Origin: a virus
IMG/VR virus record: IMGVR_UViG_3300017991_000004
Span: 67,701 to 131,700 of that record
Strand: one strand, 5' to 3'
Length of the DNA: 64,000 bases
The notes below the pieces were generated by a model. The model had not been told where the DNA came from and did no database searches. It worked only from the letters and a program-made list of their open reading frames with translations. Shown piece after piece: positions 13,984 to 56,153 of the stretch; position 1 is the stretch's first letter, and each line of letters opens with the position of its first letter. A program made the translations under genes and the position numbers.

Positions 13984-14012
13984 ATTCTAGATGGGAGCCA
14001 AACGATTATCAA
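13984..14012 (-). promoter_or_regulatory. sigma70-type promoter TTGATA-N17-TAGAAT
   Basis: 17-bp spacing; AT-rich upstream element; shares CGGGATTGATAAT with the promoter at 56192-56220. Confidence 0.7.
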
Positions 14013-14055
14013 TCCCGCAAGGCGAAAAAATAAAATTATTTTAATGGGAATTTTA

Positions 14056-14073
14056 TCTGCTGGTACCAGCAGA
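14056..14073. repeat. 18-bp palindrome copy (exact)
   Basis: lies between a terminator and a promoter. Confidence 0.95.
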
Positions 14074-14085
14074 AGTGAGAGGAAA

Positions 14086-14114
14086 TAAAAACGCCGCTGC
14101 GATTAACAGCGGCG
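14086..14114 (-). terminator. intrinsic terminator after the modification cluster
   Basis: CGCCGCTG/CAGCGGCG stem followed by a T-run on the - strand. Confidence 0.65.
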
Positions 14115-14253
14115 CTGGCACGAAGTTGCACAAGACCTGTGAAGGCCCGTTCTCTGGAAGCATTAAAAGTTTGGCGAGCGGAATGAGGCGCGAAAGTGCA
14201 GTACGGTGCGGTAGTTTCTGACTGGTAAAGTCAGCCTGTTTGTGCGCCCCAGG

Positions 14254-14967
14254 TCAAGTCGTCTTGGTCTTCTTTTTCTTGCCTATCCGCTTGAGGTAGT
14301 CACGGCAGACAATGCGGAAGACTTCTTCGTCGTCTGCGGTAATGCCCTGGAAGGCTCGTTTGAGGCGATGCCACATGGCAAGGTCTTTTTCAGTCAGGGA
14401 GAACCGCAGGAAACCTTCCTGCTCCATCGGATTTGTTATCTCCCCCAGCTTCTTGTTACGCAGAGCGTCGAGGTCGAAGGAAAGCAGGTTCATGTAGCCC
14501 TCTAGGTCTTCCCGGCTGAAGGGCATCGTGGTTTCGAGGTCATCCAGCCCGTGCTTATCGACGAGCTCCTGAACCAGTTCAGCCATCTTCACATGGTCAG
14601 ACTTGAACCTCGTTTCGTTTATCTCCATCGCCATTCGCTTGGCTGTCGTAACAGGCACCTTGCCCAGGTTGAACGCAACAGCCATCTTCATTCCGGCCTC
14701 GTGGAAGGCATCGACTCGGTGGTTACCGTCCACCACTTCGAGCGTACCATCAGGCATTTCGCGAACGATGATATTCACGACCTGCTTGTTGCGTTTGATG
14801 TTGGCAGCGAGTTTCTTCGACTGCTCGTCGTCGTCTTCTTTGTAGTTCCAGGGAGCCTTCCGTAGCTTTGCTACGGGAACCAGCTGGTACTGCTCAAGGG
14901 ACGCTAGAGCGTTTACCGCTTTGCCTTTCGACTTGCTGGTTTTCTTTTTCTTTTTGGCTTTGGGCAT
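14254..14967 (-). CDS. ParB/Srx N-terminal domain protein
   Basis: LRKAPWNY...IIVRE...VVDGNHR...MEINE. Confidence 0.8.
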   Translation of the reverse strand: MPKAKKKKKTSKSKGKAVNALASLEQYQLVPVAKLRKAPWNYKEDDDEQSKKLAANIKRNKQVVNIIVREMPDGTLEVVDGNHRVDAFHEAGMKMAVAFNLGKVPVTTAKRMAMEINETRFKSDHVKMAELVQELVDKHGLDDLETTMPFSREDLEGYMNLLSFDLDALRNKKLGEITNPMEQEGFLRFSLTEKDLAMWHRLKRAFQGITADDEEVFRIVCRDYLKRIGKKKKTKTT

Positions 14968-15779
14968 GGTCCGTCCTCGTTAAAAAAGATGCCACGCTTC
15001 TCCCACAGACGGGTGACGAATTGTTCGTGCTCTTTGTAGTGCTGCACCATTCTGTGCGTGCGCCGCTTGTAAGGTTTGGTCACTTCAATCAGGGAAGGCT
15101 CGCAGTTCCGCAACAGCCGGCCACCTCGTTGCTTCAGGTGATACGAGCGGCTCTCCTGCTGGACTACTTGCCCGTACTGTTCCCCTGCAAGCCAGGAGGT
15201 AGAGTCAATCGAACAGAATGGAATGGAGATAGCCAGCTTGGTAGTGGTGCAGCCGAAGCCGTGATGCCAGCGGCCTGCGTCATACGCCAAGACACTCATA
15301 CCTGCCAGGGTGTCGCCAGGGATAAAACGCCAACCCTTGCCGCCTGTGGCAACCATTTCGTAGTTCTTTACCAGCTCTTTCCACCCTTTGATTCCTTCGG
15401 CAGGGTGCCATACAGGCATAATCTTCGGCGTCAGTTTAAGTAGAGCCCGTCGCCACTTCTTCACCTGTCGCAGGCCCACTTGCTCTTGGATGTCCATCTC
15501 CGCGAACCAATCTATCCTCGGGTTGTCCCGGTGTGTGCGAACAAAATCCATCCATCCCTTGACGAACTTGTCCAGGTCATATCCTTCTGTGCTCTTTTGC
15601 AGCGAGTGAGCACCGGAGTCGATTGCGACGTGCTGGAACACCTTGCTTCCTAGCACAGCGGTCACGTCTTTATCGGTACGCGCCCGCCAGAACGCAGGAT
15701 AGGCTGCCAGCACGCTCTTTGTGCCGGCGTCTTCCAGCTTTTCCCAGTGGGTCTCTGCACCAGCGAAGTAGTAGCGCAT
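14913..15779 (-). CDS. dpdA: DpdA-like (TGT-fold) DNA deazaguanine transglycosylase
   Basis: YFAG, IDSGAHS, EMD, PVWH, HGFG and SIDSTSW motifs; inside a folE/queD/queE cluster. Confidence 0.75.
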   Translation of the reverse strand: MRYYFAGAETHWEKLEDAGTKSVLAAYPAFWRARTDKDVTAVLGSKVFQHVAIDSGAHSLQKSTEGYDLDKFVKGWMDFVRTHRDNPRIDWFAEMDIQEQVGLRQVKKWRRALLKLTPKIMPVWHPAEGIKGWKELVKNYEMVATGGKGWRFIPGDTLAGMSVLAYDAGRWHHGFGCTTTKLAISIPFCSIDSTSWLAGEQYGQVVQQESRSYHLKQRGGRLLRNCEPSLIEVTKPYKRRTHRMVQHYKEHEQFVTRLWEKRGIFFNEDGPCPKPKRKRKPASRKAKR

Positions 15780-15787
15780 GGTGTCTC

Positions 15788-16909
15788 CTATCGGAACAGG
15801 TTGGCCCCGCAACAAATGTCAACAATACGTTGCAGAGAAGAGTCGTAATACTCTAGCCGTTCCCTGGCCCGACCAAACGACTTAGTTGGACCTGTCATTG
15901 CCTCTTCGATTTTTACCAGAGCGTCATCAAGGCCGGTGTAGAGCCAGCTAGAATTGAAACCGACCACTTCAGGGTGAGAATAGTCATTGGGTACTACAGG
16001 TATCGTACCTAACGCCATAGCCTCGAGAGTGCAGTAGCCGAAGTTCTCTTCGATGGTCGTCGATACCATTACCTTTGCCTCGGCAAGCAGACGGTAGTAG
16101 TCCGTCTTGGAGAGTCCTTCGTGAATTTCGACGATACCTCCCAGTTCAAGCGCCCTGGCGTACTCGCACAGCCACACTTGATTGCTCCGAAACATCTCTC
16201 GGGAGGTGCAGACACCAAACCGCCACTTGGGATGCCGCCGTTTCAGAATAACAGCCAGGTCGAGGAAAAGGTTGGGCCTCTTTTCGTAGTCGAACCGGTT
16301 GGGGAACAGGATGAAGTCCCGTTTCACAATGTCCGGAGCAGCCGCTTGGACCTCTTTGGAGCTAAAGGGGTTACCGGTGACATGAATGTTCCGCAGAACT
16401 TGGTCGTATGACTTGCCTGAGGATTGCAGGCGGCGGTCAACAAACGCAAACTTGTGGTATTCAGTGCCAACGAAGATACCGTCTACTGCGAACGCCCAAC
16501 CGATTTCGAGATACTCCGCCCAGTATGCCATCGGTGCGGCGAAGTCTTCCTTGGTGTACGTTCCAGCGTGAAGGAATACGAATATCTTCGCGTCGATACC
16601 GTTCAGTTGAATGAGGTATTTCAACATTTCGATGGGGAACCACATATCCGCGACGAAGAAAATGTCACCGTCTTGCACCTTTCCTGCGTAGAACAGGGCG
16701 GCAAGGTTCTTTACCTGCTCCGCCTTCCAGTGCATCGTACTGTTGACATCAAGGAAGGCTCCTACCTCTATCTTGTCGCAGAGAGGCTCGCCTATCACCT
16801 CGACATACTCGAAGGTATGATAATCGGCAGCCCGAAACCACCGGAGCCACTGCCCTGTATACCGTTCCTCAAGAGGTTCCAGCGCCAAATGCCAGAAGGT
16901 ATTGCCCAT
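15788..16909 (-). CDS. GT-B (GT4-like) glycosyltransferase
   Basis: FPNRFDYEK and EENFGYCTLEAMALG (ExFGxxxxE motif). Confidence 0.85.
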   Translation of the reverse strand: MGNTFWHLALEPLEERYTGQWLRWFRAADYHTFEYVEVIGEPLCDKIEVGAFLDVNSTMHWKAEQVKNLAALFYAGKVQDGDIFFVADMWFPIEMLKYLIQLNGIDAKIFVFLHAGTYTKEDFAAPMAYWAEYLEIGWAFAVDGIFVGTEYHKFAFVDRRLQSSGKSYDQVLRNIHVTGNPFSSKEVQAAAPDIVKRDFILFPNRFDYEKRPNLFLDLAVILKRRHPKWRFGVCTSREMFRSNQVWLCEYARALELGGIVEIHEGLSKTDYYRLLAEAKVMVSTTIEENFGYCTLEAMALGTIPVVPNDYSHPEVVGFNSSWLYTGLDDALVKIEEAMTGPTKSFGRARERLEYYDSSLQRIVDICCGANLFR

Positions 16910-16919
16910 GGCTGTTCTC

Positions 16920-17540
16920 CTAGTCCAAGCCTATGTAGAGGTTTTCGAGAAGGGTCATCCGAACATCTTGCAGGTCGCGGTCCTTCTCAGCGTCTTGCAG
17001 AAAATAATTGTAGAGCGTCTTCTCGTTGCCGTACCGCGGATGGGGGAAAAGGTACACCGGACAGGCCGGCTTGTGCTTTTGGATGATGGCGATGGCTTCG
17101 TGGTATTCTTTGGCGTTGGTAACTACAAACTTCACCTGGTCAGTTTTCCGCAGAAGGTTAAGGTTACTCAACGCTGTAATACCTGGGCGGACAAACAGGA
17201 AAATCGTCAGTCCTTCGACCGACACGAATCGGTCAAGGCGTTTGAATCCGTTGGTTTGCAGCGTCGGAGAGAAACCTTCTTCGATAAGACAGGTGATGAA
17301 CCGCAGCAGCTCCTCATGTGACTGTAACAGCGGCTCCCCACAGTCGAGGTAGACGTGCCTGATGTTCTTCAGGAGACATAGTTGCAGTAAGGCATCCGGA
17401 GACATCTCTTTGTACTCGTCGTCTTGTCGAGTGCAGTAAGGGCAGCGTGAGTTGCAGCCAAAAAACTCGATGAACAAGGTAGGCAGACCCGCCTTTTGGC
17501 CTTCGGCTTCGATTGAATACATATCGTAAACAATCTTCAT
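16920..17540 (-). CDS. divergent QueE-like radical SAM protein (second copy)
   Basis: SIEAEG..G.P..F...GCNSRCPYC; GEPL; QTNG. Confidence 0.7.
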   Translation of the reverse strand: MKIVYDMYSIEAEGQKAGLPTLFIEFFGCNSRCPYCTRQDDEYKEMSPDALLQLCLLKNIRHVYLDCGEPLLQSHEELLRFITCLIEEGFSPTLQTNGFKRLDRFVSVEGLTIFLFVRPGITALSNLNLLRKTDQVKFVVTNAKEYHEAIAIIQKHKPACPVYLFPHPRYGNEKTLYNYFLQDAEKDRDLQDVRMTLLENLYIGLD

Positions 17541-18208
17541 GGCAGCTCCTTTACCAACGCGTTCCAGTTGACCTTGTGCTTGAACAAGGCGACCTCCGCA
17601 GCCGCCTCACGGTACCGCTGCCGGTCAGACTCGGACAGATTATCCACCGGAGTGAGGTTGCGTAGAACCTCTGCTGCCGTCAGCAGCGTACGCACCTCAC
17701 CCATGATTGGGTGCGGCGCGAAAGGCGACAATGAGTATGCCTCAAAGAGGTAGTACCGCTCGTCGTTCTCCCAGAGTTTCTGCTGACTTGGGTAAAACCT
17801 GTCGAGCATGTTTCGCTTGCCAGCCCGCTCGTCAAGGTCAAGAACCTCATGAGGGACATTCATGGCAACCGAGTAGTAGATTCGCTGGCGAGCGGGGATG
17901 GCTTTGGCCGTGTGGTAGACGTATAGATGGTGCTGGTGTTTCTCTTCCGCCATCGGAATGAATAAGCAGTTGATGTCGTCGGGCATCGCCGGCCACTGGA
18001 AGGGACAGAAACCTAGCTGACTGGCCGCTACTTGCGATTCCTTCACCCGCTGTCCTTCTCGCTCGAAGAAGTAGACCACAGCGTCAATCAGTCCCGCCCG
18101 AATGACCCGATGACAGCCAATGACCTCGTCGTCGGGATGCGGCGCAAGGATAACGCTTCGGCCGCTCCCTTGCTGTACCTGTTTCACGACGTCGGCGAAG
18201 GGAATCAT
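17537..18208 (-). CDS. PIG-L/LmbE-family deacetylase
   Basis: LAPHPDDEVIG; R..E; HQHH; YPSQ. Confidence 0.8.
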   Translation of the reverse strand: MIPFADVVKQVQQGSGRSVILAPHPDDEVIGCHRVIRAGLIDAVVYFFEREGQRVKESQVAASQLGFCPFQWPAMPDDINCLFIPMAEEKHQHHLYVYHTAKAIPARQRIYYSVAMNVPHEVLDLDERAGKRNMLDRFYPSQQKLWENDERYYLFEAYSLSPFAPHPIMGEVRTLLTAAEVLRNLTPVDNLSESDRQRYREAAAEVALFKHKVNWNALVKELP

Positions 18209-18585
18209 AACTCCTCCATACCATCCGTGATGGCTTGCTCTAGTTTCTCGTTAACTATGAACAGATGGTAGTCACGCCCTAGCAATCGCCGCATGGCCCA
18301 GTCGAGGTTTTTGCTTTCGCGCCACACGAAGGTAGGGTCATTTGTCTTGACGAAGATGTAGAGGTCGATGTCGCTGGAGGCGGCAGGCTTTTTAGGATTG
18401 TACTTGCTGTAAGACCCCGACAGATAGATGGAGACTACTTCACTGCCACGGAGGTTAAGGAGCAGGGGAACGAGTTTCTTCGCCCGAGGTCTATCCTCTG
18501 CGTTGAACTGCGCCCTTCTCCCGCTTCCAAATATACTCCGTGACAAACTCTTCCCTATCGACGCCATCAGGGACTTCAGTGACAT
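18205..18585 (-). CDS. minimal nucleotidyltransferase (Pol-beta superfamily)
   Basis: IYLSGSY...SSDIDLYI. Confidence 0.75.
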   Translation of the reverse strand: MSLKSLMASIGKSLSRSIFGSGRRAQFNAEDRPRAKKLVPLLLNLRGSEVVSIYLSGSYSKYNPKKPAASSDIDLYIFVKTNDPTFVWRESKNLDWAMRRLLGRDYHLFIVNEKLEQAITDGMEEL

Positions 18586-19066
18586 TGGGTAGTCCTAGAA
18601 CCAGGGAACGAATGATGGGGTCTACTGCCATCCTGAACTCGTCACTCGGCCGCTTGCCGTCCGACACCCAAGGCAAAGGGCCGTAGAAGAACAGTTGGGA
18701 GTATGTCTTTACCCACTCATGGACAAACAGCTCTATCGCGCGGTAGGTAGGCTGCTCTTTGTCTTCGATGCAGTAGACCGCGTAACCGAAAAAGTCGATA
18801 ACGCTCCGGTCTGCAAGCACAAAGGCCATGTCCCCTCGCAGGCACGCTCTGGTCTCGAGGAGCGCCTGCTGGAGAATGATGTTCGCCTGCGCGGTCGCGT
18901 CATAGTCGAGCAGCACAGGGTCAAAGTACCGCTTGCGGTCTAGAGAAACAAGCGCCTCGACCTGGCACCCCCGCTTGCGGAGGTCGCCTGTTATGGAGTA
19001 GAGGGCAGTTGTCTTCCCTGAGCAACTCGTCCCCACGACAGCGTACTTGCGAGCCGGTATGTTCAC
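18491..19066 (-). CDS. P-loop nucleoside/nucleotide kinase (NadR/AAA_28-like)
   Basis: GTSCSGKTT Walker A; ADRSVID; DGKR. Confidence 0.75.
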   Translation of the reverse strand: MNIPARKYAVVGTSCSGKTTALYSITGDLRKRGCQVEALVSLDRKRYFDPVLLDYDATAQANIILQQALLETRACLRGDMAFVLADRSVIDFFGYAVYCIEDKEQPTYRAIELFVHEWVKTYSQLFFYGPLPWVSDGKRPSDEFRMAVDPIIRSLVLGLPNVTEVPDGVDREEFVTEYIWKREKGAVQRRG

Positions 19067-19207
19067 CTAAAACTCCTCCTCCCAGAACCGGTCGAGGTAG
19101 CGTTCGAGGATTGCGGCATCGCACTCTGTTCCCTCGCCGTCGTCCGTTATGTAAATCCAGAGGCGGCCGGAGGGTAGTTCCTCGACAGTGTATTTGCCTA
19201 CCCGCAT

Positions 19208-19678
19208 CTACTCCCCCGGCCCGTATGTTGCGTGCCACACTTCGAGGTCGTGTACCACTGACGCCTGTGCAGTCAGTTCACCTTTTAGAGTTGCGACCTG
19301 GCGCTCTAGTTCGGAGAGGCGAGCGATTAGCGAGGAATCACTCACGGCATCACGCACTACTTGGGCACCGTTCTCGGCATCCTCCCAAACCGCTACCTCG
19401 ACCATCTCCGGGAAGGCTTCCAGCAGTTCCCCGCACATCATTTCGCAACTGGTAGCCCCCAGGTCTGCCCGGTCAAAATGGTTGCGAAGATAGTCGGTAA
19501 CTGCCCGCTTGAACTGGATGAACTCGATGTCGCGGTCATCGTGGTTTACAGCGGCTTTCGCCTTCACATGGAAGATGTGCCGGTGCTTGTCGCGCAAGAA
19601 GGCGACATCATCGTGAGGACATCCTGGCCAGTGATGGATGGCTTCGAACTGAGTCTTGATAAGGATGAATGTTTGCAT
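19208..19678 (-). CDS. QueD-like T-fold protein with LxxxHRHxF motif (DpdL-like candidate CDG decarboxylase)
   Basis: HHWP...FLRDKHRHIF...HDDRDIEF...SCEM...EDAENGA; AGGAG RBS before ATG19678. Confidence 0.7.
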   Translation of the reverse strand: MQTFILIKTQFEAIHHWPGCPHDDVAFLRDKHRHIFHVKAKAAVNHDDRDIEFIQFKRAVTDYLRNHFDRADLGATSCEMMCGELLEAFPEMVEVAVWEDAENGAQVVRDAVSDSSLIARLSELERQVATLKGELTAQASVVHDLEVWHATYGPGE

Positions 19679-19686
19679 GGCTTCTC

Positions 19687-20262
19687 CTAGTATCTGCACA
19701 GACGATGAAACTCTTCCTTCACATCCTTCTCGGTGAAGCATCCGCGTAAAGCGGAGGTGACCATCACTGAGTTTTGCTTCTCTACTCCTCGCGAAGTCAT
19801 GCAGAAGTGTTGGGCCTCTACTATGACGCCCACTCCGCGTGGAGAGAGGTTGTCGTTCAGCGCGTCGGCGATTTGCTGAGTCATCTTCTCTTGAATCTGA
19901 AGCCTTCTGGCGAAGCACTCGACCAGGCGAGCCAGCTTGGAGATACCTACCACCCGCGTACCCGGAACGTACCCGACGTGCGCCTTACCGAAGAAGGGCA
20001 GGAGATGGTGCTCACAGGTCGAGTACATTTCGATGTCTCGCAGGAGCACCATTTGGTCGTAGTTCTCCGTCTCCTCGAAGACTGTGCAGAGCACATCCTT
20101 CGGGTTTTGCTTGTATCCGCCGTAGAGCTTGTCCCAACTGCGGACAACCCGGTCAGGAGTACCCACCAACCCTTCGCGTTCAGGGTCGTCTCCGATGTGT
20201 TGCAGCAGTAGCCCTATCAGGGTATGTCGAGAATCTTGTGCCCTTGCAGACTGAGTCGCCAT
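19687..20262 (-). CDS. folE: GTP cyclohydrolase I
   Basis: REGL..TP.RV, STCEHHLLPF, GISKLAR, RLQIQE, HFCM..RG. Confidence 0.97.
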   Translation of the reverse strand: MATQSARAQDSRHTLIGLLLQHIGDDPEREGLVGTPDRVVRSWDKLYGGYKQNPKDVLCTVFEETENYDQMVLLRDIEMYSTCEHHLLPFFGKAHVGYVPGTRVVGISKLARLVECFARRLQIQEKMTQQIADALNDNLSPRGVGVIVEAQHFCMTSRGVEKQNSVMVTSALRGCFTEKDVKEEFHRLCRY

Positions 20263-20873
20263 TTGGGGTTCTCCTTTACAAACTGAACTGCCCTGTTCAT
20301 CACAGGAAGGTTAATAGTCAGGGAAGTCGAATATCCGTGAGGACTGGCTTCCCAACAAGGTTGAATGAACAGCCGACCGGGGGGCCAGTCATCCGCGATG
20401 TCTTCAGCCATCGGGATAAGGCTCAAGTTTTCCTCGGTCAGCACGATTTTTATTTCGTGGATACGGTACGGGTCAGTCAGCGTCCACGGTTCGGCGCCGA
20501 CAAACGTTTTGGGGGAAACAGTTATCCAGTCTACCCAGCTCCAGGGCAGGTCTTCCGGCAAGTTGATGGTGCCGTTGGTTTCGATGTGAATTTGGTAGCC
20601 CTGTTCCCGAAGAACCGGTACAAGTTCTTCGAGGTCGAAGAGTTGCCACAGTGGTTCACCCCCTGTGATGACAACTCTCTTCGCGGGGAACCTGCGCATC
20701 TGGGCAAGGACTTCGCCAGGAGTCAATTGCGCGACGATACTGTGATAGTCAGTGTCGCAAAATTCACAGTTTTGATTGCACCCGGACAGGCGTATGAACA
20801 CCGCAGGTGTCCCCGCCCAGGTTCCCTCCATCTGAAGGGAATAGAAAATGGGCTCGGCAAGGTCTAGCGCCAT
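20217..20873 (-). CDS. queE: 7-carboxy-7-deazaguanine synthase
   Basis: SLQMEG, CNQNCEFCDT, ITGGEP, IETNGT, TVSPK, LSLQGHK. Confidence 0.93.
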   Translation of the reverse strand: MALDLAEPIFYSLQMEGTWAGTPAVFIRLSGCNQNCEFCDTDYHSIVAQLTPGEVLAQMRRFPAKRVVITGGEPLWQLFDLEELVPVLREQGYQIHIETNGTINLPEDLPWSWVDWITVSPKTFVGAEPWTLTDPYRIHEIKIVLTEENLSLIPMAEDIADDWPPGRLFIQPCWEASPHGYSTSLTINLPVMNRAVQFVKENPKWRLSLQGHKILDIP

Positions 20874-20876
20874 GAT

Positions 20877-21041
20877 TTACTCCTTCGTTTTAGGTCTGCC
20901 TTGCGACTTCGTCACATCAACCGCAATCTGGATGACCAGCACAAAGACAATCAGCATCCACATCACGTTGAAGTCCCAGTCCCATCCCTCTACTGGGCAA
21001 TACTCCAGGACCAGACAGACAAGAAAAACTACATATCCCAT
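20877..21041 (-). CDS. small two-helix membrane protein (54 aa)
   Basis: GGAGG RBS; MGYVVFLVCLVL...MWMLIVFVLVIQIAV, read manually. Confidence 0.5.
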   Translation of the reverse strand: MGYVVFLVCLVLEYCPVEGWDWDFNVMWMLIVFVLVIQIAVDVTKSQGRPKTKE

Positions 21042-21051
21042 GACAACCTCC

Positions 21052-21069
21052 TCTGCTGGTACCAGCAGA
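21052..21069. repeat. 18-bp palindrome copy (exact), abuts the queD stop
   Basis: direct reading. Confidence 0.95.
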
Positions 21070-21438
21070 CTATCGAGAGTCGTGTCGCACGATAACCATG
21101 CTCCCCGGCGACTCGTTCAGATGCACCTCGACCGCATAGGGCACCTTGTCGAGCAACCACGCGCCGAGCAGTTCGGCAGTGGGGCGGTCAGTCTGAAGCA
21201 CCTCGTTCAGGTAGCAGTGGTCGAGGGCGTTGATGATTTTCTTGATGTCGCCGAAGTCGACCAGCATCCCATCCTTGAGCAGGTTGGCAGGTCCCCGGCA
21301 GACCACCTTACCGAACCAGGTATGGCCGTGCAGATTCGCGCACTTGCCAGGATGACCTTCGAGGCAGTGGGCAGAGTCGAACTTGAACTCCTTTACCAGG
21401 GTGAACACCTTGCCGGCGATGACTTCGTCAGGCTTCAT
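21070..21438 (-). CDS. queD: 6-carboxy-5,6,7,8-tetrahydropterin synthase
   Basis: FDSAH.L...GKCANLHGHTW, DFGDIK, LDHCYLNE, PTAE. Confidence 0.95.
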   Translation of the reverse strand: MKPDEVIAGKVFTLVKEFKFDSAHCLEGHPGKCANLHGHTWFGKVVCRGPANLLKDGMLVDFGDIKKIINALDHCYLNEVLQTDRPTAELLGAWLLDKVPYAVEVHLNESPGSMVIVRHDSR

Positions 21439-21446
21439 GGTACCTC

Positions 21447-22028
21447 CTATAGCCCTCGCGGGATAAGTTTGCCGAAAGCGAATGAATCCATGACGCTCTC
21501 GATGTAGACCTCGTACCCTTCATCCAGGAAGAAGACACCTTCCTGGGTATGCTGGTCGTTGATTTTGATAAGAGCGTCATCCAGCATATTACGGATGAAC
21601 ACGATAAGGCCCGAGACCTTGTGCCCTAGGCGCGTCACAGGAATCCAGCCCGAGCCGTTATGCTCCCACTCGCTATCTTTGCGAGTGTACGGTTCCACTT
21701 TGATGAAGTGGGAGGCGTCGGACTTCCGCTTGTTCTTCAGAACAACGATTCGCCGCAGATGGTCACCCTTGTGCAGCGGGCCGATACGGATACCCGTCAC
21801 AATGGTCTTGCCTTTGTCCGTGCTGCACAGGAAGTCCAGCACAGCGTGTTGTTTCAAGTCATTGTACGCGACGTAAGACGTAACCAGGTTGGAGTCGTCC
21901 AGTACGCACACATAGACATTGAGAACGTTCTTGAACTTCTCCAGAACAATAGCCTCATTTCCCTGCACGGAAATAAGGCGAGAACTGCCCTGGAGCACCT
22001 TGATGTTTTTGCCAATTAAGTCTTTCAT
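21447..22028 (-). CDS. hypothetical protein
   Basis: 193-aa ORF, GGAGG RBS. Confidence 0.65.
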   Translation of the reverse strand: MKDLIGKNIKVLQGSSRLISVQGNEAIVLEKFKNVLNVYVCVLDDSNLVTSYVAYNDLKQHAVLDFLCSTDKGKTIVTGIRIGPLHKGDHLRRIVVLKNKRKSDASHFIKVEPYTRKDSEWEHNGSGWIPVTRLGHKVSGLIVFIRNMLDDALIKINDQHTQEGVFFLDEGYEVYIESVMDSFAFGKLIPRGL

Positions 22029-25250: not shown

Positions 25251-27080
25251 TCATGACGACCTCACCAGTGACAGCACCGCCTTGGCGATATTCGCCTGGG
25301 TGCATGACACATAATGGAACCCTATAGAGTTGACCAGCGCAATCGACTCCGGGTCACCAGCATGGTTTCCGCAGATACCAAACTGCACTTCTGGATTTGT
25401 TTCCAACGCCGTCATTACGCTTAATGTAATCAACCGACCGACCCCTCTGGCGTCTAGCGACTCAAACGGGTTGTATTCTAGCACACCCAATTGCGCGTAA
25501 TTGGGCAGGTAAGTCGCGTCGTCTCGGGAGAAGGCAAAGGTGAACTGGGTTAAGTCGTTCGTGCCGTAAGACAGAAACTCGCAGTATGGCGCGACTTCGC
25601 CTGCTATCAGGCAGGCGCGAGGAGTTTCTATCATCACACCGAACTTCAGCTCCGCAGGGTCCTCACCGCAAGTCGCCCACACCCGCTCGACCAAATCGCG
25701 CAGAACGATAACCTCTCCGACCTCAGAAACAAGGGGCACCATGATGCCAACCTGGCACTCCTTTCCTGCGGCGATGTAGGCTTCCGCAATCGCTTGCACC
25801 TGCATGGCGTAGAAGTCAGAGAACAGAATCCCAAAGCGGCAACCCCTCAGCCCCATCATGGGATTCTCCTCCTCGAAGCCGGCACCAAATTCATTCAGGG
25901 GAGCGTCGAGTAATCGAATGCAGATGTAGCTGGAACCCACCGCCTCAAAGGCAGCCTTGAACAATCCCTTCGACACCTTGAGGAGTTTCGCAAGAACCTC
26001 CCTCCGGGTATGGTGCTCGTTCTTTAGAGCAGCCTTCATGTACGCAGACAGCAGAACTGTTTGGTCCTGAAACATATGCTCCGTTCGGAACAACCCGATG
26101 CCCATAGCACCAGCATCCAGCGCGGCTGTAATGGCTGACGCCGATTCTGCATTAGCGTAGACTTCCAATTCTACAAAGTCATGGGCATAGTTGAGGATTG
26201 TCCCTACCTGCTCTGACCAGGCACCTTCATCAGATTTAATCTTCAGTCCAGCCAGGTACACCTTGCCGCTGTAAGCGTCTACTGAGACGGCATCCGTATG
26301 ACTGTTGATGGCGAAAATATCCTTCTCCGACAGGCCAACTACACAGGGGATTCCTTCGCTGGCTGCAAGGAGCGCGGCGTGGCTCAACAGACCTCCGCCT
26401 GTAAGGATAACCTTTGCCTTCTTCATGTCGCCTACGTCTGCGGGCGTAGTCAACATAGCCGCGAACCGGTCATGGGCTTCGGCGACCACCAATCCTGGGT
26501 GCGCGGGTGACCCCGTACACAGGGGCTTGTACTTTTTCGGAATAATGAAGTGCTCCTGTTGCAGATTGCCAAGCTCCAGTGGAAGGCTTTTGAGTATCTT
26601 CAGGCGGTGAATCCGATTGGCGAAGTTGAGCAGTTCGCCATAGGCTTTGACCTTCGCCTTCAATGGAAGCTCCAGCGGTTCTTTGTGACAGAGGAATATG
26701 CTCCCCTTCTCCCGCTTTGCGAACACAACCTTCAACGGATAACCGGAATGATGCTCCATGCTCGACACCAGTTCTTGCATTTTGTTCGACATGGGCACCA
26801 CTACTGGCGTACCGTCTCCTAACCGCGACTTGAGGATGTCCGTCTCAACGTCCCCTTCTGCCGTGCGAGAGTTTGTCTGCAAGATGCTAGTAGTGTCAGA
26901 GGGCATCTTGTAGATAGCCTCGCCCGCCGCGACAATGCCTGCGACAACGGGGAGGTCTTTTGCTCTGGAGAGGCGAAAGGTTTTGATGGAAGAGAAGTCT
27001 TCGTAGAGGATGATGTCTTCTGACTTCTCCTCGAACTTTTTCTCCAGAGTTGTGCGCGTCAATTTCAACGGCTTAGTCAT
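25251..27080 (-). CDS. PPDK-like PEP-utilising protein (phospho-His domain plus PEP/pyruvate barrel; no ATP-grasp domain)
   Basis: GGLLSHAA, GIGLFRTEHMF, EENPMMGLRGCR, MIETPRA, SYGTNDLTQF, GICGNHAGDP. Confidence 0.85.
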   Translation of the reverse strand: MTKPLKLTRTTLEKKFEEKSEDIILYEDFSSIKTFRLSRAKDLPVVAGIVAAGEAIYKMPSDTTSILQTNSRTAEGDVETDILKSRLGDGTPVVVPMSNKMQELVSSMEHHSGYPLKVVFAKREKGSIFLCHKEPLELPLKAKVKAYGELLNFANRIHRLKILKSLPLELGNLQQEHFIIPKKYKPLCTGSPAHPGLVVAEAHDRFAAMLTTPADVGDMKKAKVILTGGGLLSHAALLAASEGIPCVVGLSEKDIFAINSHTDAVSVDAYSGKVYLAGLKIKSDEGAWSEQVGTILNYAHDFVELEVYANAESASAITAALDAGAMGIGLFRTEHMFQDQTVLLSAYMKAALKNEHHTRREVLAKLLKVSKGLFKAAFEAVGSSYICIRLLDAPLNEFGAGFEEENPMMGLRGCRFGILFSDFYAMQVQAIAEAYIAAGKECQVGIMVPLVSEVGEVIVLRDLVERVWATCGEDPAELKFGVMIETPRACLIAGEVAPYCEFLSYGTNDLTQFTFAFSRDDATYLPNYAQLGVLEYNPFESLDARGVGRLITLSVMTALETNPEVQFGICGNHAGDPESIALVNSIGFHYVSCTQANIAKAVLSLVRSS

Positions 27081-55253: not shown

Positions 55254-56153
55254 TCAGTCTGCTGGTACCAGCAGACTGCCCTTCTCTAGTTCTCGGCTCA
55301 ATAGCGTTTCCGAATGCCCCAACCAGGACCAGTTACGAAACTTCTGCGGAACCCGTGACTCAACGGTCAACTCTCTGAACAACTTCAACGAGAATACTGC
55401 TTCCTCTAATTGTTCTTTCACCTTCTTGTTGTAAACCTTGCCGCTCGACTTAACGCCCTGCCGCAACCACCAGGCGGGGTGCCTGATGTGTAGGAATCTC
55501 ATGCCGCCGAAGTTGACCGTGCGATTGCAGTTCACTGGCAAGTTCTTCTCCCCCTTCTGCGGGTCGGCAATCGGGAAGAAAGTTCTCGCCGCGTGCGCTC
55601 CGATAAGCACTACCCCTTTGGGCTTGGTGTTATCGAGAAAGGCAAGAAGACGAATGAGGCAACACGCCTTCTCCCAATGGTGAGGGTCGCGGTTATTCGG
55701 AGGACGGCAGAGGACTGTATTCGTTATCGCGTAGTCCTGCCCGAAGCCTGCATTGGCGAACATCCAATCGAGCAGTTTCCCTGACCGCCCGACGAAGGGT
55801 GTACCCGTCTCGGCTTCCTTCGCACCTGGAGCTTCGCCTATCGCGACAATAAGAGGTTTCTTACGGCCCCGGAAGAAGACAGGCCGCTCACCGTAAAGGG
55901 TGCAGACCTTTCCAGGGCAGAGGTCGTTGTTGACCTTTAGGAGGGATGCCTTGGCCCACGACTCATCCGGGTACGGAATAGTAGCGCAAGCGATTGCGGG
56001 CTTGCCGCCGACAGCGCCTTTGAAGTGCGCCCTCGCTGCCTGCTTGAGTCGTTTCCTAGTTGTGAGTTTATCGAGATACCGTCCACCCTCTCGGGCATAC
56101 AAGACGGTATCTTCTCCCCGCGTAGCGCGGAGGAATAGAATACGCCTTCGCAC
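55254..56153 (-). CDS. uracil-DNA glycosylase family 4
   Basis: IGEAPG..E...G.PFVGRSG..L, TN.V.CRPP.NR.P, HPA. Confidence 0.9.
   Translation of the reverse strand: MRRRILFLRATRGEDTVLYAREGGRYLDKLTTRKRLKQAARAHFKGAVGGKPAIACATIPYPDESWAKASLLKVNNDLCPGKVCTLYGERPVFFRGRKKPLIVAIGEAPGAKEAETGTPFVGRSGKLLDWMFANAGFGQDYAITNTVLCRPPNNRDPHHWEKACCLIRLLAFLDNTKPKGVVLIGAHAARTFFPIADPQKGEKNLPVNCNRTVNFGGMRFLHIRHPAWWLRQGVKSSGKVYNKKVKEQLEEAVFSLKLFRELTVESRVPQKFRNWSWLGHSETLLSRELEKGSLLVPAD
55258..55275. repeat. 18-bp palindrome copy (exact) at the 3' end of UDG
   Basis: encodes the terminal LLVPAD*. Confidence 0.95.

Follow-up and report, generated by a model that had tools for sequence, protein, structure and literature searches.

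To our knowledge, the natural 7-deazaguanines of DNA carry at C7 only a hydrogen, carboxyl, amide, nitrile, aminomethyl (also in methyl and formyl forms) or amidine group, and the known sugars of DNA are attached to pyrimidines. The closest described system is that of Cellulophaga phage phiST, a DpdA3 phage whose DNA shows full replacement by 2'-deoxy-7-deazaguanosine (dDG); DpdL, the protein named and defined by its motif in the same work, was proposed there as the decarboxylase of 7-carboxy-7-deazaguanine (CDG) behind this base, according to the accessible text of the study (Cui, Hutinet et al., NAR 2023, PMC10516641). Here, we analysed a 64,000-nucleotide stretch of viral DNA (hereafter the window; positions 67,701 to 131,700 of IMG/VR virus record IMGVR_UViG_3300017991_000004), whose minus strand carries an operon that has FolE, QueD, QueE, DpdL with the LxxxHRHxF motif and DpdA in common with phiST and, as far as that text describes phiST, likewise no QueC. 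Beyond phiST, the operon encodes a GT4-like glycosyltransferase (GT), an LmbE/PIG-L-type deacetylase, a second QueE-like radical SAM protein, a unit made of P-loop and nucleotidyltransferase (NTase) domains and a ParB-like protein. Both the GT and the deacetylase are missing from phiST, whose DpdA is of the phrog_10773 type, whereas that of the window is of the phrog_887 type.

We read this locus, with moderate confidence, as an operon for 7-deazaguanine DNA modification that lacks QueC and to which a sugar-tailoring module is added. An original prediction made from the letters of the window had proposed that the phage might place an amino sugar on a 7-deazaguanine base (or a second base) of its DNA. 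The deazaguanine cluster on which it built is confirmed, but the preQ0/preQ1/G+ routes against which the cluster had been set are not involved; the partner is DpdL in a QueC-less route. The dpdL gene had been left out of the list of parts, and it turned out to encode the key partner, often fused to the deacetylase.

Linkage of the glycosyltransferase to deazaguanine genes

A tblastn search with the GT recovered 18 of the 50,697 records of a phage collection, belonging to six lineages: Xanthomonas phages BUDD and X1, Burkholderia phage BCSR5, Synechococcus phage BUCT-ZZ01, Sinorhizobium phage Phosso, Acidovorax phage ACP17 and eleven PA5oct-like Pseudomonas jumbo phages. In each of the six lineages inspected, the GT homolog lies within a FolE/QueE/DpdA cluster. 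Only 29 of the 50,697 records hold DpdL, and these include every one of the 18 with the GT, so that the occurrence of the GT in deazaguanine operons is more than chance, and the GT, the signature gene of the module, is not a passenger there. The 11 DpdL records without a GT include the phiST group. Cultured phages with the module are BUDD, X1, BCSR5, ACP17 and PA5oct; the GT, the deacetylase and DpdL are all present in BUDD, X1 and BCSR5, whereas ACP17 and PA5oct have only the GT and DpdL.

In a large protein collection, the GT family counts 144 members at E ≤ 1e-5, encoded on contigs of up to ~200 kb. A pattern scan for GT loci gave 38 in viral contigs, and the same kind of scan of genome_contigs (one genome each for 185,579 bacterial and archaeal species) gave 1 locus, on a 71-kb contig of a metagenome-assembled genome (MAG); both numbers are minima, since the scan patterns were strict. 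The GT family is essentially viral.

A first set of 45 GT loci (6 isolates, 38 viral contigs and the MAG contig) was searched with profile hidden Markov models (HMMs) of the families neighbouring the GT. The deacetylase was found in 38 of these loci and DpdL in 39, to which the contig of locus L032 adds a DpdL beyond the stretch searched. Both were present in 34/45 loci and at least one of the two in 43/45; L031 and L043, which have neither, are cut next to the GT. The strongest single result of the survey is that in 22/45 loci the deacetylase and DpdL are fused in one frame (~150 aa plus ~110 aa), the two being present as separate genes in another 12. Some DpdA was detected in 37/45 loci, and it came from three families without mutual BLAST matches (phrog_887 type, phrog_10773 type and a third that is weakly phrog_887-like).

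For a second set, 80 metagenome loci were reduced to 57 by removing 23 with an identical GT C-terminus. Here, the deacetylase and DpdL were fused in 15 loci and both present as separate genes in 11; 8 loci had the deacetylase only, 5 DpdL only and 18 neither. Seventeen of these 18 have <3 kb upstream of the GT; where 3 kb or more is available on that side, 18 of 19 loci carry the deacetylase, DpdL or both. This second, independent sample thus agrees with the first. The co-occurrence check that had been set beforehand for the original prediction came out in its favour: GT and PIG-L genes accompany deazaguanine genes and three DpdA families in many phages.

Two further enzymes recur at GT loci. 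A PAPS-reductase-type PP-loop enzyme (PF01507, E 5.7e-12) occurs in 26/45 loci (L009:8205-8831, L010:8931-9986, L036:6939-7526 and others), sometimes duplicated or ~351 aa long; its role may be to activate a phosphate or the carboxyl group of CDG, and tblastn found it absent from the window. A second GT4-like glycosyltransferase is encoded in L018 (8180-9574, 464 aa), L035 and, by a weak match (E 1e-4), L003 of the first set and in L084 of the second, which suggests chain building or a disaccharide variant.

Properties of the encoded enzymes

The AlphaFold2 (AF2) model of the window GT (predicted local distance difference test, pLDDT, 92; predicted template modelling score 0.90) has a GT-B fold of two Rossmann-like domains. 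Its structural neighbours, among them BshA, MshA and PimA, align with Z 25-28 over 300-340 residues, and the values for sucrose-phosphate synthase (27.7), BshA (27.0-27.1), MshA (26.4), LmbT (26.1) and SenB (25.8) are to be read as ties. Residues R205, K210, E288 and E296 are invariant in 30/30 sequences, and the N-terminal acceptor domain is strongly conserved. We take E288 and E296 to be the EX7E motif of such enzymes, and the Arg and Lys presumably bind the diphosphate. The protein is acidic (pI 5.4; family median 5.8), and phmmer found nothing for it in the PDB. Judging from MshA, BshA and HuiG and from the pairing with an LmbE-type deacetylase, UDP-GlcNAc is the most likely donor. HuiG, of the huimycin pathway of Kutzneria, is a PF13439-family GT that uses UDP-GlcNAc on a 7-deazapurine base, as described in the accessible part of a preprint (bioRxiv 10.64898/2026.04.15.718813).

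The deacetylase model has a pLDDT of 86.2, rising above 90 over residues 1-160. All 26 Foldseek matches at E ≤ 1e-3 are LmbE-family chains, each with probability 1.00; they include TT1542, BshB (E 8.4e-6), BC1534, diacetylchitobiose deacetylases, Dbv21, LnmX and Orf2*, and MshB comes next (E 1.2e-3). Residues P23, H24, D26, D27, H91 and H94, which form the (A/P)HxDDE and HxxH motifs, are invariant in 26/26 sequences; by analogy with MshB, the His and Asp residues among them presumably are the zinc ligands and the general base. Since the folds and the catalytic motifs of both proteins match those of the GT4 and LmbE families, the pairing of the two enzyme types is real, as had been claimed, and also specific (see below), and their nearest solved structures include BshA/BshB and MshA/MshB.

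The complete genomes of ACP17, BUCT-ZZ01, PAC2 and Phosso encode the GT and DpdL, and no deacetylase or LmbE domain was found genome-wide in any of them. Their GTs are the most divergent ones, with 25-30% identity. A GT tree was built from 39 rows (the 43 rows of at least 250 aa from the 45 loci and the window, minus 4 identical; ACP17 (L002) and PAC2 (L006) were left out). All members of one clade of 32 rows have the deacetylase, and BUCT-ZZ01, Phosso, L017 and L031, which have none, fall outside it; the deacetylase therefore tracks the type of GT. The window stands on its own deep branch, and by this tree the deacetylase may have had one origin or more.

In DpdL of the window, the motif LRDKHRHIF corresponds to the LxxxHRHxF signature, which replaces the CxxxHGH of QueD; L28, H32, H34 and F36 (L28-x3-H32-R33-H34-x-F36) are invariant in 10/10 sequences. 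An hhalign comparison (probability 95.8%, E 7.6e-9) shows this T-fold family to be related to QueD. It keeps the three zinc histidines and two glutamates of QueD, the catalytic Cys is replaced by Leu, and the Asp-His segment is gone. A phmmer search of the PDB with DpdL gave nothing significant. In contrast to DpdL, the QueD of the operon keeps the Cys and His residues of the CxxxHGH type, which are invariant in the family alignment, as are C32/C36/C39 and GGEP of the canonical QueE. None of the five complete GT-carrying phage genomes has a QueC over the Pfam cut-off, which 12/14 control genomes pass, and no QueC was found in the 64-kb window (best tblastn E 0.33, with QueC of phage SHIN8 as query).

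The window DpdA, a putative DNA guanine transglycosylase, has tblastn matches to annotated phage DpdA and queuine tRNA-ribosyltransferase genes; it has no Pfam TGT match and none in the PDB by phmmer. A ParB-like gene directly follows that of DpdA in the window, L019 and L031, and members of its family are present in 8 of the 57 further metagenome loci (presence was counted, not gene order). Bacterial DpdB is a ParB-like ATPase that helps DpdA to insert preQ0, and the phage protein is, by analogy, a possible counterpart of it.

Proposed pathway and alternative explanations

The enzymes of the GT/deacetylase module very probably act in the deazaguanine DNA-modification pathway. That the phage DNA itself carries a hexosamine-bearing deazaguanine is a separate claim, to which we give a cautious preference. 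In the proposed pathway, FolE, QueD and QueE, as shown by homology, make CDG, with no QueC present to process it further, and DpdL would bind and process CDG, the proposal in print being decarboxylation to 7-deazaguanine. The GT4 enzyme would transfer an N-acetylhexosamine from its likely donor onto the DpdL-dependent base, and the LmbE-type enzyme would then strip the acetyl group, exposing a cationic amine. Cationic groups are a recurrent theme in hypermodified phage DNA, and a freed amine fits it. Both reactions would take place on the free base, and DpdA, probably with ParB-like help, would swap guanine in the phage DNA for the finished base. The QueE-derived protein adjoining the GT (see below) probably presents or alters the substrate and may still be catalytic in the window phage, and the P-loop/NTase unit could provide an optional extra decoration or activation step in a few lineages. 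The likely purpose would be to protect the DNA from restriction and other nucleases.

Free-base chemistry is suggested by the frequent fusion of the deacetylase to a small-molecule T-fold protein and by the acidic character of the GT family. Together with the QueE-derived neighbour of the GT and the absence of any isolate with the GT and without DpdL, these features point to the product of DpdL, as a free base, as the likely acceptor. Alternatively, DpdA might first insert plain 7-deazaguanine or CDG, and the GT and then the deacetylase would decorate it within double-stranded DNA in the manner of T4, a sequence of events that we consider possible but rather unlikely. It would agree with textbook knowledge of T4, in which the sugar is added after replication, as in known sugar modifications of phage DNA, and with the gene order, the GT and DpdA being immediate neighbours in the window as well as at many loci. 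In phiST, moreover, DpdA inserts an undecorated 7-deazaguanine at full replacement, according to the accessible text of the study (PMC10516641). Decoration on DNA is harder to reconcile with the fusion of the deacetylase, in 22/45 and 15/57 loci, to DpdL, which its describers modelled on the free base, and with an acidic GT family; no longer or fused form of the GT was found either, fusion to DpdA included, which is weak evidence. The T4 alpha- and beta-glucosyltransferases (AGT and BGT) are not among the structural neighbours listed for the GT, and absence from this list excludes nothing.

The sugar might be attached at C7, giving a C-glycoside, at the carboxyl of CDG, giving an ester or amide, or at N2, as in huimycin. 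The PP-loop enzyme would suit an activation of the CDG carboxyl, and a QueC-like reaction that joins CDG to the freed sugar amine by an amide was also considered. The strict dependence of the GT on DpdL, and not on a QueC-type pathway, would suggest C7. The GT4 enzyme would then make a C-C bond, placing GlcNAc onto the pyrrole-ring C7 freed by DpdL, possibly in a reaction coupled to the decarboxylation, and once the acetyl group is removed DpdA would insert 7-(aminohexosyl)-7-deazaguanine. We regard this particular version as unlikely; if true, it would give the first sugar-bearing purine analogue in any DNA and the first C-glycosylated DNA base, assembled as a free base and then swapped in ready-made.

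Several points weigh against the reading of the locus as a sugar-tailored deazaguanine operon. Neither 7-deazaguanine nor CDG has an ordinary hydroxyl group, so that a sugar would have to be attached in an uncommon way, be it as a C-glycoside, as an acyl glycoside or amide, or as an N2 glycoside. Among the neighbours of the GT, sucrose-phosphate synthase and glycogen synthase rank level with BshA, as GT4 enzymes that use glucose or mannose do in Z score, and the GT4 fold does not reveal the donor. The PF02585 match of the deacetylase covers residues 20-37 only and stays below the cut-off, as does the Pfam match of the NTase, whose motif is G57-S58 ... D72-I-D74 (GS...DID). The locus counts given above are not numbers of independent lineages, some loci being near-copies (e.g. 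L013-L016, which are near-identical), and the search of the window for QueC covered 64 kb of a contig listed as 131,719 bp, on which a QueC may lie elsewhere. The CDG decarboxylase activity of DpdL is a proposal, in print as well as here. In the accessible text of the DpdL study, phiST, which has no GT, is the only DpdL phage whose DNA appears in Table 1, and co-expression of dpdL and dpdA in E. coli, from phiST and from ACP17, gave no dDG; its authors suggested that additional, unidentified enzymes may be required (PMC10516641).

The failure to obtain dDG, with the suggestion of other enzymes, would also be expected if the sugar were a transient activating or carrier handle, used for decarboxylation or for delivery to DpdA, and the DNA ended with plain 2'-deoxy-7-deazaguanosine; the GT is, in addition, never found without DpdL in the phage records. 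Such a role is improbable: phiST and 10 other DpdL records have no GT, and replacement by dDG is nevertheless complete in phiST; there would be little point in deacetylating a group that is later discarded; and the second GTs of some loci suggest that chains are built. Finally, although phage GT4 genes often modify host surface glycans and the JGI name of relatives is 'glycosyltransferase involved in cell wall biosynthesis', it is very improbable that the GT and the deacetylase serve another target (a second DNA base, tRNA or, as a 'moron', the host envelope) and are clustered here by chance or co-regulation, given the strict co-occurrence with DpdL and the deacetylase-DpdL fusion, the association with three unrelated DpdA families in different phage backbones, the near-absence from cellular genomes and the lack of any hydroxymethylase or thymidylate-synthase family match among the 39 window open reading frames (ORFs) that were compared with Pfam, PHROGs or NCBIfam.

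A hexosamine-bearing deazaguanine would, if true, be a new class of DNA base. It would involve new enzymology, with a GT4 enzyme that acts on a deazapurine and a protein that unites an LmbE with a T-fold domain, and it would bear on restriction, CRISPR and glycosylase-based defences as well as on phage sequencing and engineering. It could also explain the unidentified 'modified G' of the PA5oct-like therapeutic jumbo phages: PA5oct, which has the GT and DpdL, resists several restriction enzymes with G-containing sites, and a modified G of unidentified nature was reported in the accessible part of that work (PMC12191111). In the searchable literature, which leaves subscription journals outside, neither a paper connecting deazaguanine in DNA with a glycosyltransferase or an amino sugar nor a report of a sugar-bearing purine analogue in DNA was found; a term search of the paper on phage X1 gave no mention of the pathway.

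Operon layout, accessory proteins and known systems

The window comes from a phage; among its products are a portal protein, a DNA polymerase of family A, a recombinase like UvsX and a DnaB-like helicase. A near-identity DNA search with positions 14000-22000 found no match among the 50,697 phage records. A search of sequencing runs gave a single weak DNA match, to a run available as contigs (share 0.19), and no RNA run was among the matches listed. The minus-strand operon runs in the order QueD, QueE, FolE, DpdL, P-loop protein, NTase, deacetylase, second QueE-like radical SAM protein, GT, DpdA, ParB-like protein and terminator (Table 1). All five genes from the GT to the P-loop protein that had been singled out from the sequence were located where they had been placed, with FolE, QueE and QueD upstream and DpdA downstream as claimed. 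Their tight coupling was also borne out, with junctions of one 10-nt gap, two 4-nt overlaps and one 95-nt overlap. The hairpin after the last gene is the top-listed terminator-like site in a scan of the window.

Table 1. Features of the deazaguanine operon in the window
Feature	Positions	Strand	Support and remarks
QueD (6-carboxytetrahydropterin synthase), first gene of the run	21070..21438	-	TIGR03367 E 4.9e-24
QueE (7-carboxy-7-deazaguanine synthase), canonical copy	20217..20873	-	phrog_2076 E 2.1e-30; PF04055 E 3.5e-11
FolE (GTP cyclohydrolase I)	19687..20262	-	PF01227 E 4.6e-71
DpdL	19208..19678	-	phrog_17812 E 2.9e-20; start is an internal ATG 9 nt past the FolE stop
P-loop AAA_28 protein (NadR-kinase-like)	18491..19066	-	PF13521 E 1.8e-9, 38.5 bits (cut-off 27); Walker A GTSCSGKT
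Putative minimal Pol-beta-type NTase	18205..18585	-	PF18765 E 2.2e-4, 21.8 bits, under cut-off 26.9
LmbE/PIG-L-type deacetylase	17537..18208	-	fold and motifs; PF02585 15.5 bits, under cut-off 28.2
Second QueE-like radical SAM protein	16920..17540	-	PF04055 35.2 bits (cut-off 29.5)
GT4-like retaining GT-B glycosyltransferase	15788..16909	-	PF00534 E 1.1e-16, 61.2 bits (cut-off 26.4)
DpdA	14913..15815	-	phrog_887 E 1e-23; alternative ATG start at 15779
ParB-like protein, 3' of DpdA	14254..14967	-	phrog_723 E 1.5e-21; PF02195 E 9.5e-5, under cut-off
Terminator-like hairpin closing the operon	14090..14116	-	11-bp stem, 7 G-C pairs, T-run

The radical SAM gene that had been called divergent has its motif intact (CxxxCxxC at C29/C33/C36) and belongs to a QueE-derived family that adjoins the GT. 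It matches QueE by hhalign (98.8%, E 6e-17), and its score against the QueE equivalog TIGR03963 (E 2.7e-22, 79.5 bits) is under the cut-off of 260.1. Its one clear homolog, at the same position in L019 (9393-9992; 31% identity), has lost the CxxxCxxC motif. In 20/45 loci the gene directly upstream of that of the GT encodes a protein of 128-176 aa (h143), and hhalign (89.6%, E 1.9e-6) makes these proteins remote relatives of the pair formed by the window protein and its L019 homolog, in the same slot before the GT. The h143 proteins match canonical QueE weakly (26%, E 7e-4) and have no conserved cysteine; tblastn found none in the window. By their sequences, the window protein, its L019 homolog and h143 look like a family of QueE-derived pseudoenzymes, mostly non-catalytic, that accompanies the GT, and since the L019 homolog and h143 have no Cys motif, the window holds the only member seen whose iron-sulfur motif is intact. 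Another type of second radical SAM protein (family f49) was observed at E ≤ 1e-3 in five loci of the first set (L017, L021, L025, L041 and L046) and four of the second (L060, L061, L076 and L107).

The kinase and the NTase, which had been put forward as general parts of the module, fared less well, and no result points to the sugar activation that had been suggested for them. The P-loop protein was found in 5/45 loci and the NTase in 1/45; in the second set, the P-loop protein occurs in L096, L106 and L109, with weaker matches in L114 and L126, and the NTase only in L096. The two domains form a single 299-aa protein in L019, with whose C-terminus the window NTase aligns by eye (NTase HMM: E 1e-47 for L019 and 1e-10 for L096), and the P-loop homologs of L003, L036 and L037 (296-321 aa) have a related, partly degenerate NTase-like domain at the C-terminus. 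A look-up of the P-loop protein in the Atlas gave AAA_28 again. Judged from these alignments, kinase and NTase are one rare two-domain unit, fused in relatives and split in the window, where the two frames overlap at 18491-18585; the gene may truly be split, or a frameshift or an error of sequencing may lie behind the arrangement.

Other observations concern the surroundings of these loci. A 609-aa PEP-utilising (PPDK-like) protein is encoded in the window at 25251-27080, a few genes upstream of the cluster. This gene and orf193, orf498 and orf364, all beyond QueD, were considered as parts of the module and rejected (0/44 GT loci; no Pfam matches); the PPDK-like gene lies outside the module because none of the 44 GT loci carries one. 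A domain of the uracil-DNA glycosylase superfamily (PF03167, E 1e-23) is present in a 299-aa protein encoded at 55254-56153 of the window, in a phage that probably has modified guanines. An HNH endonuclease gene stands between the deacetylase-DpdL fusion and the GT in L028 (2509-3120), L029 and L030, and a 1735-aa ORF with intein, LAGLIDADG, DNA ligase and XkdF protease domains follows the GT in L020 (11082-16289). A small phosphoribosyltransferase (PF00156), encoded in L004 (3072-3545), L006 (10315-10749) and L007 (7317-7781), might salvage the guanine released by DpdA or belong to a nucleotide-level route.

Among the systems other than phiST with which the operon can be compared, the bacterial DpdA/DpdB system likewise has a ParB-like gene next to dpdA; the window differs in having no dpdC-K and a different inserted base, and the ParB_N match of its ParB-like protein is under the Pfam cut-off. 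HuiG is likened to the phage GT by its fold; its pathway makes a secondary metabolite from preQ0, and HuiG acts there after O-methylation, with no DpdA and no DNA involved. The T4 alpha- and beta-glucosyltransferases, which produce glucosyl-5-hydroxymethylcytosine, are likewise phage GT-B enzymes that put a sugar on a non-canonical base against restriction, but they act within DNA on the hydroxymethyl group of a pyrimidine and have no deacetylase. The MshA/MshB and BshA/BshB pairs of mycothiol and bacillithiol synthesis have the same two folds, and their catalytic motifs are kept in the phage enzymes at a sequence identity of only 11-17%. Unlike these pairs, the phage pair is tied to a deazapurine, its deacetylase is often fused to a T-fold domain, and its family is essentially viral.

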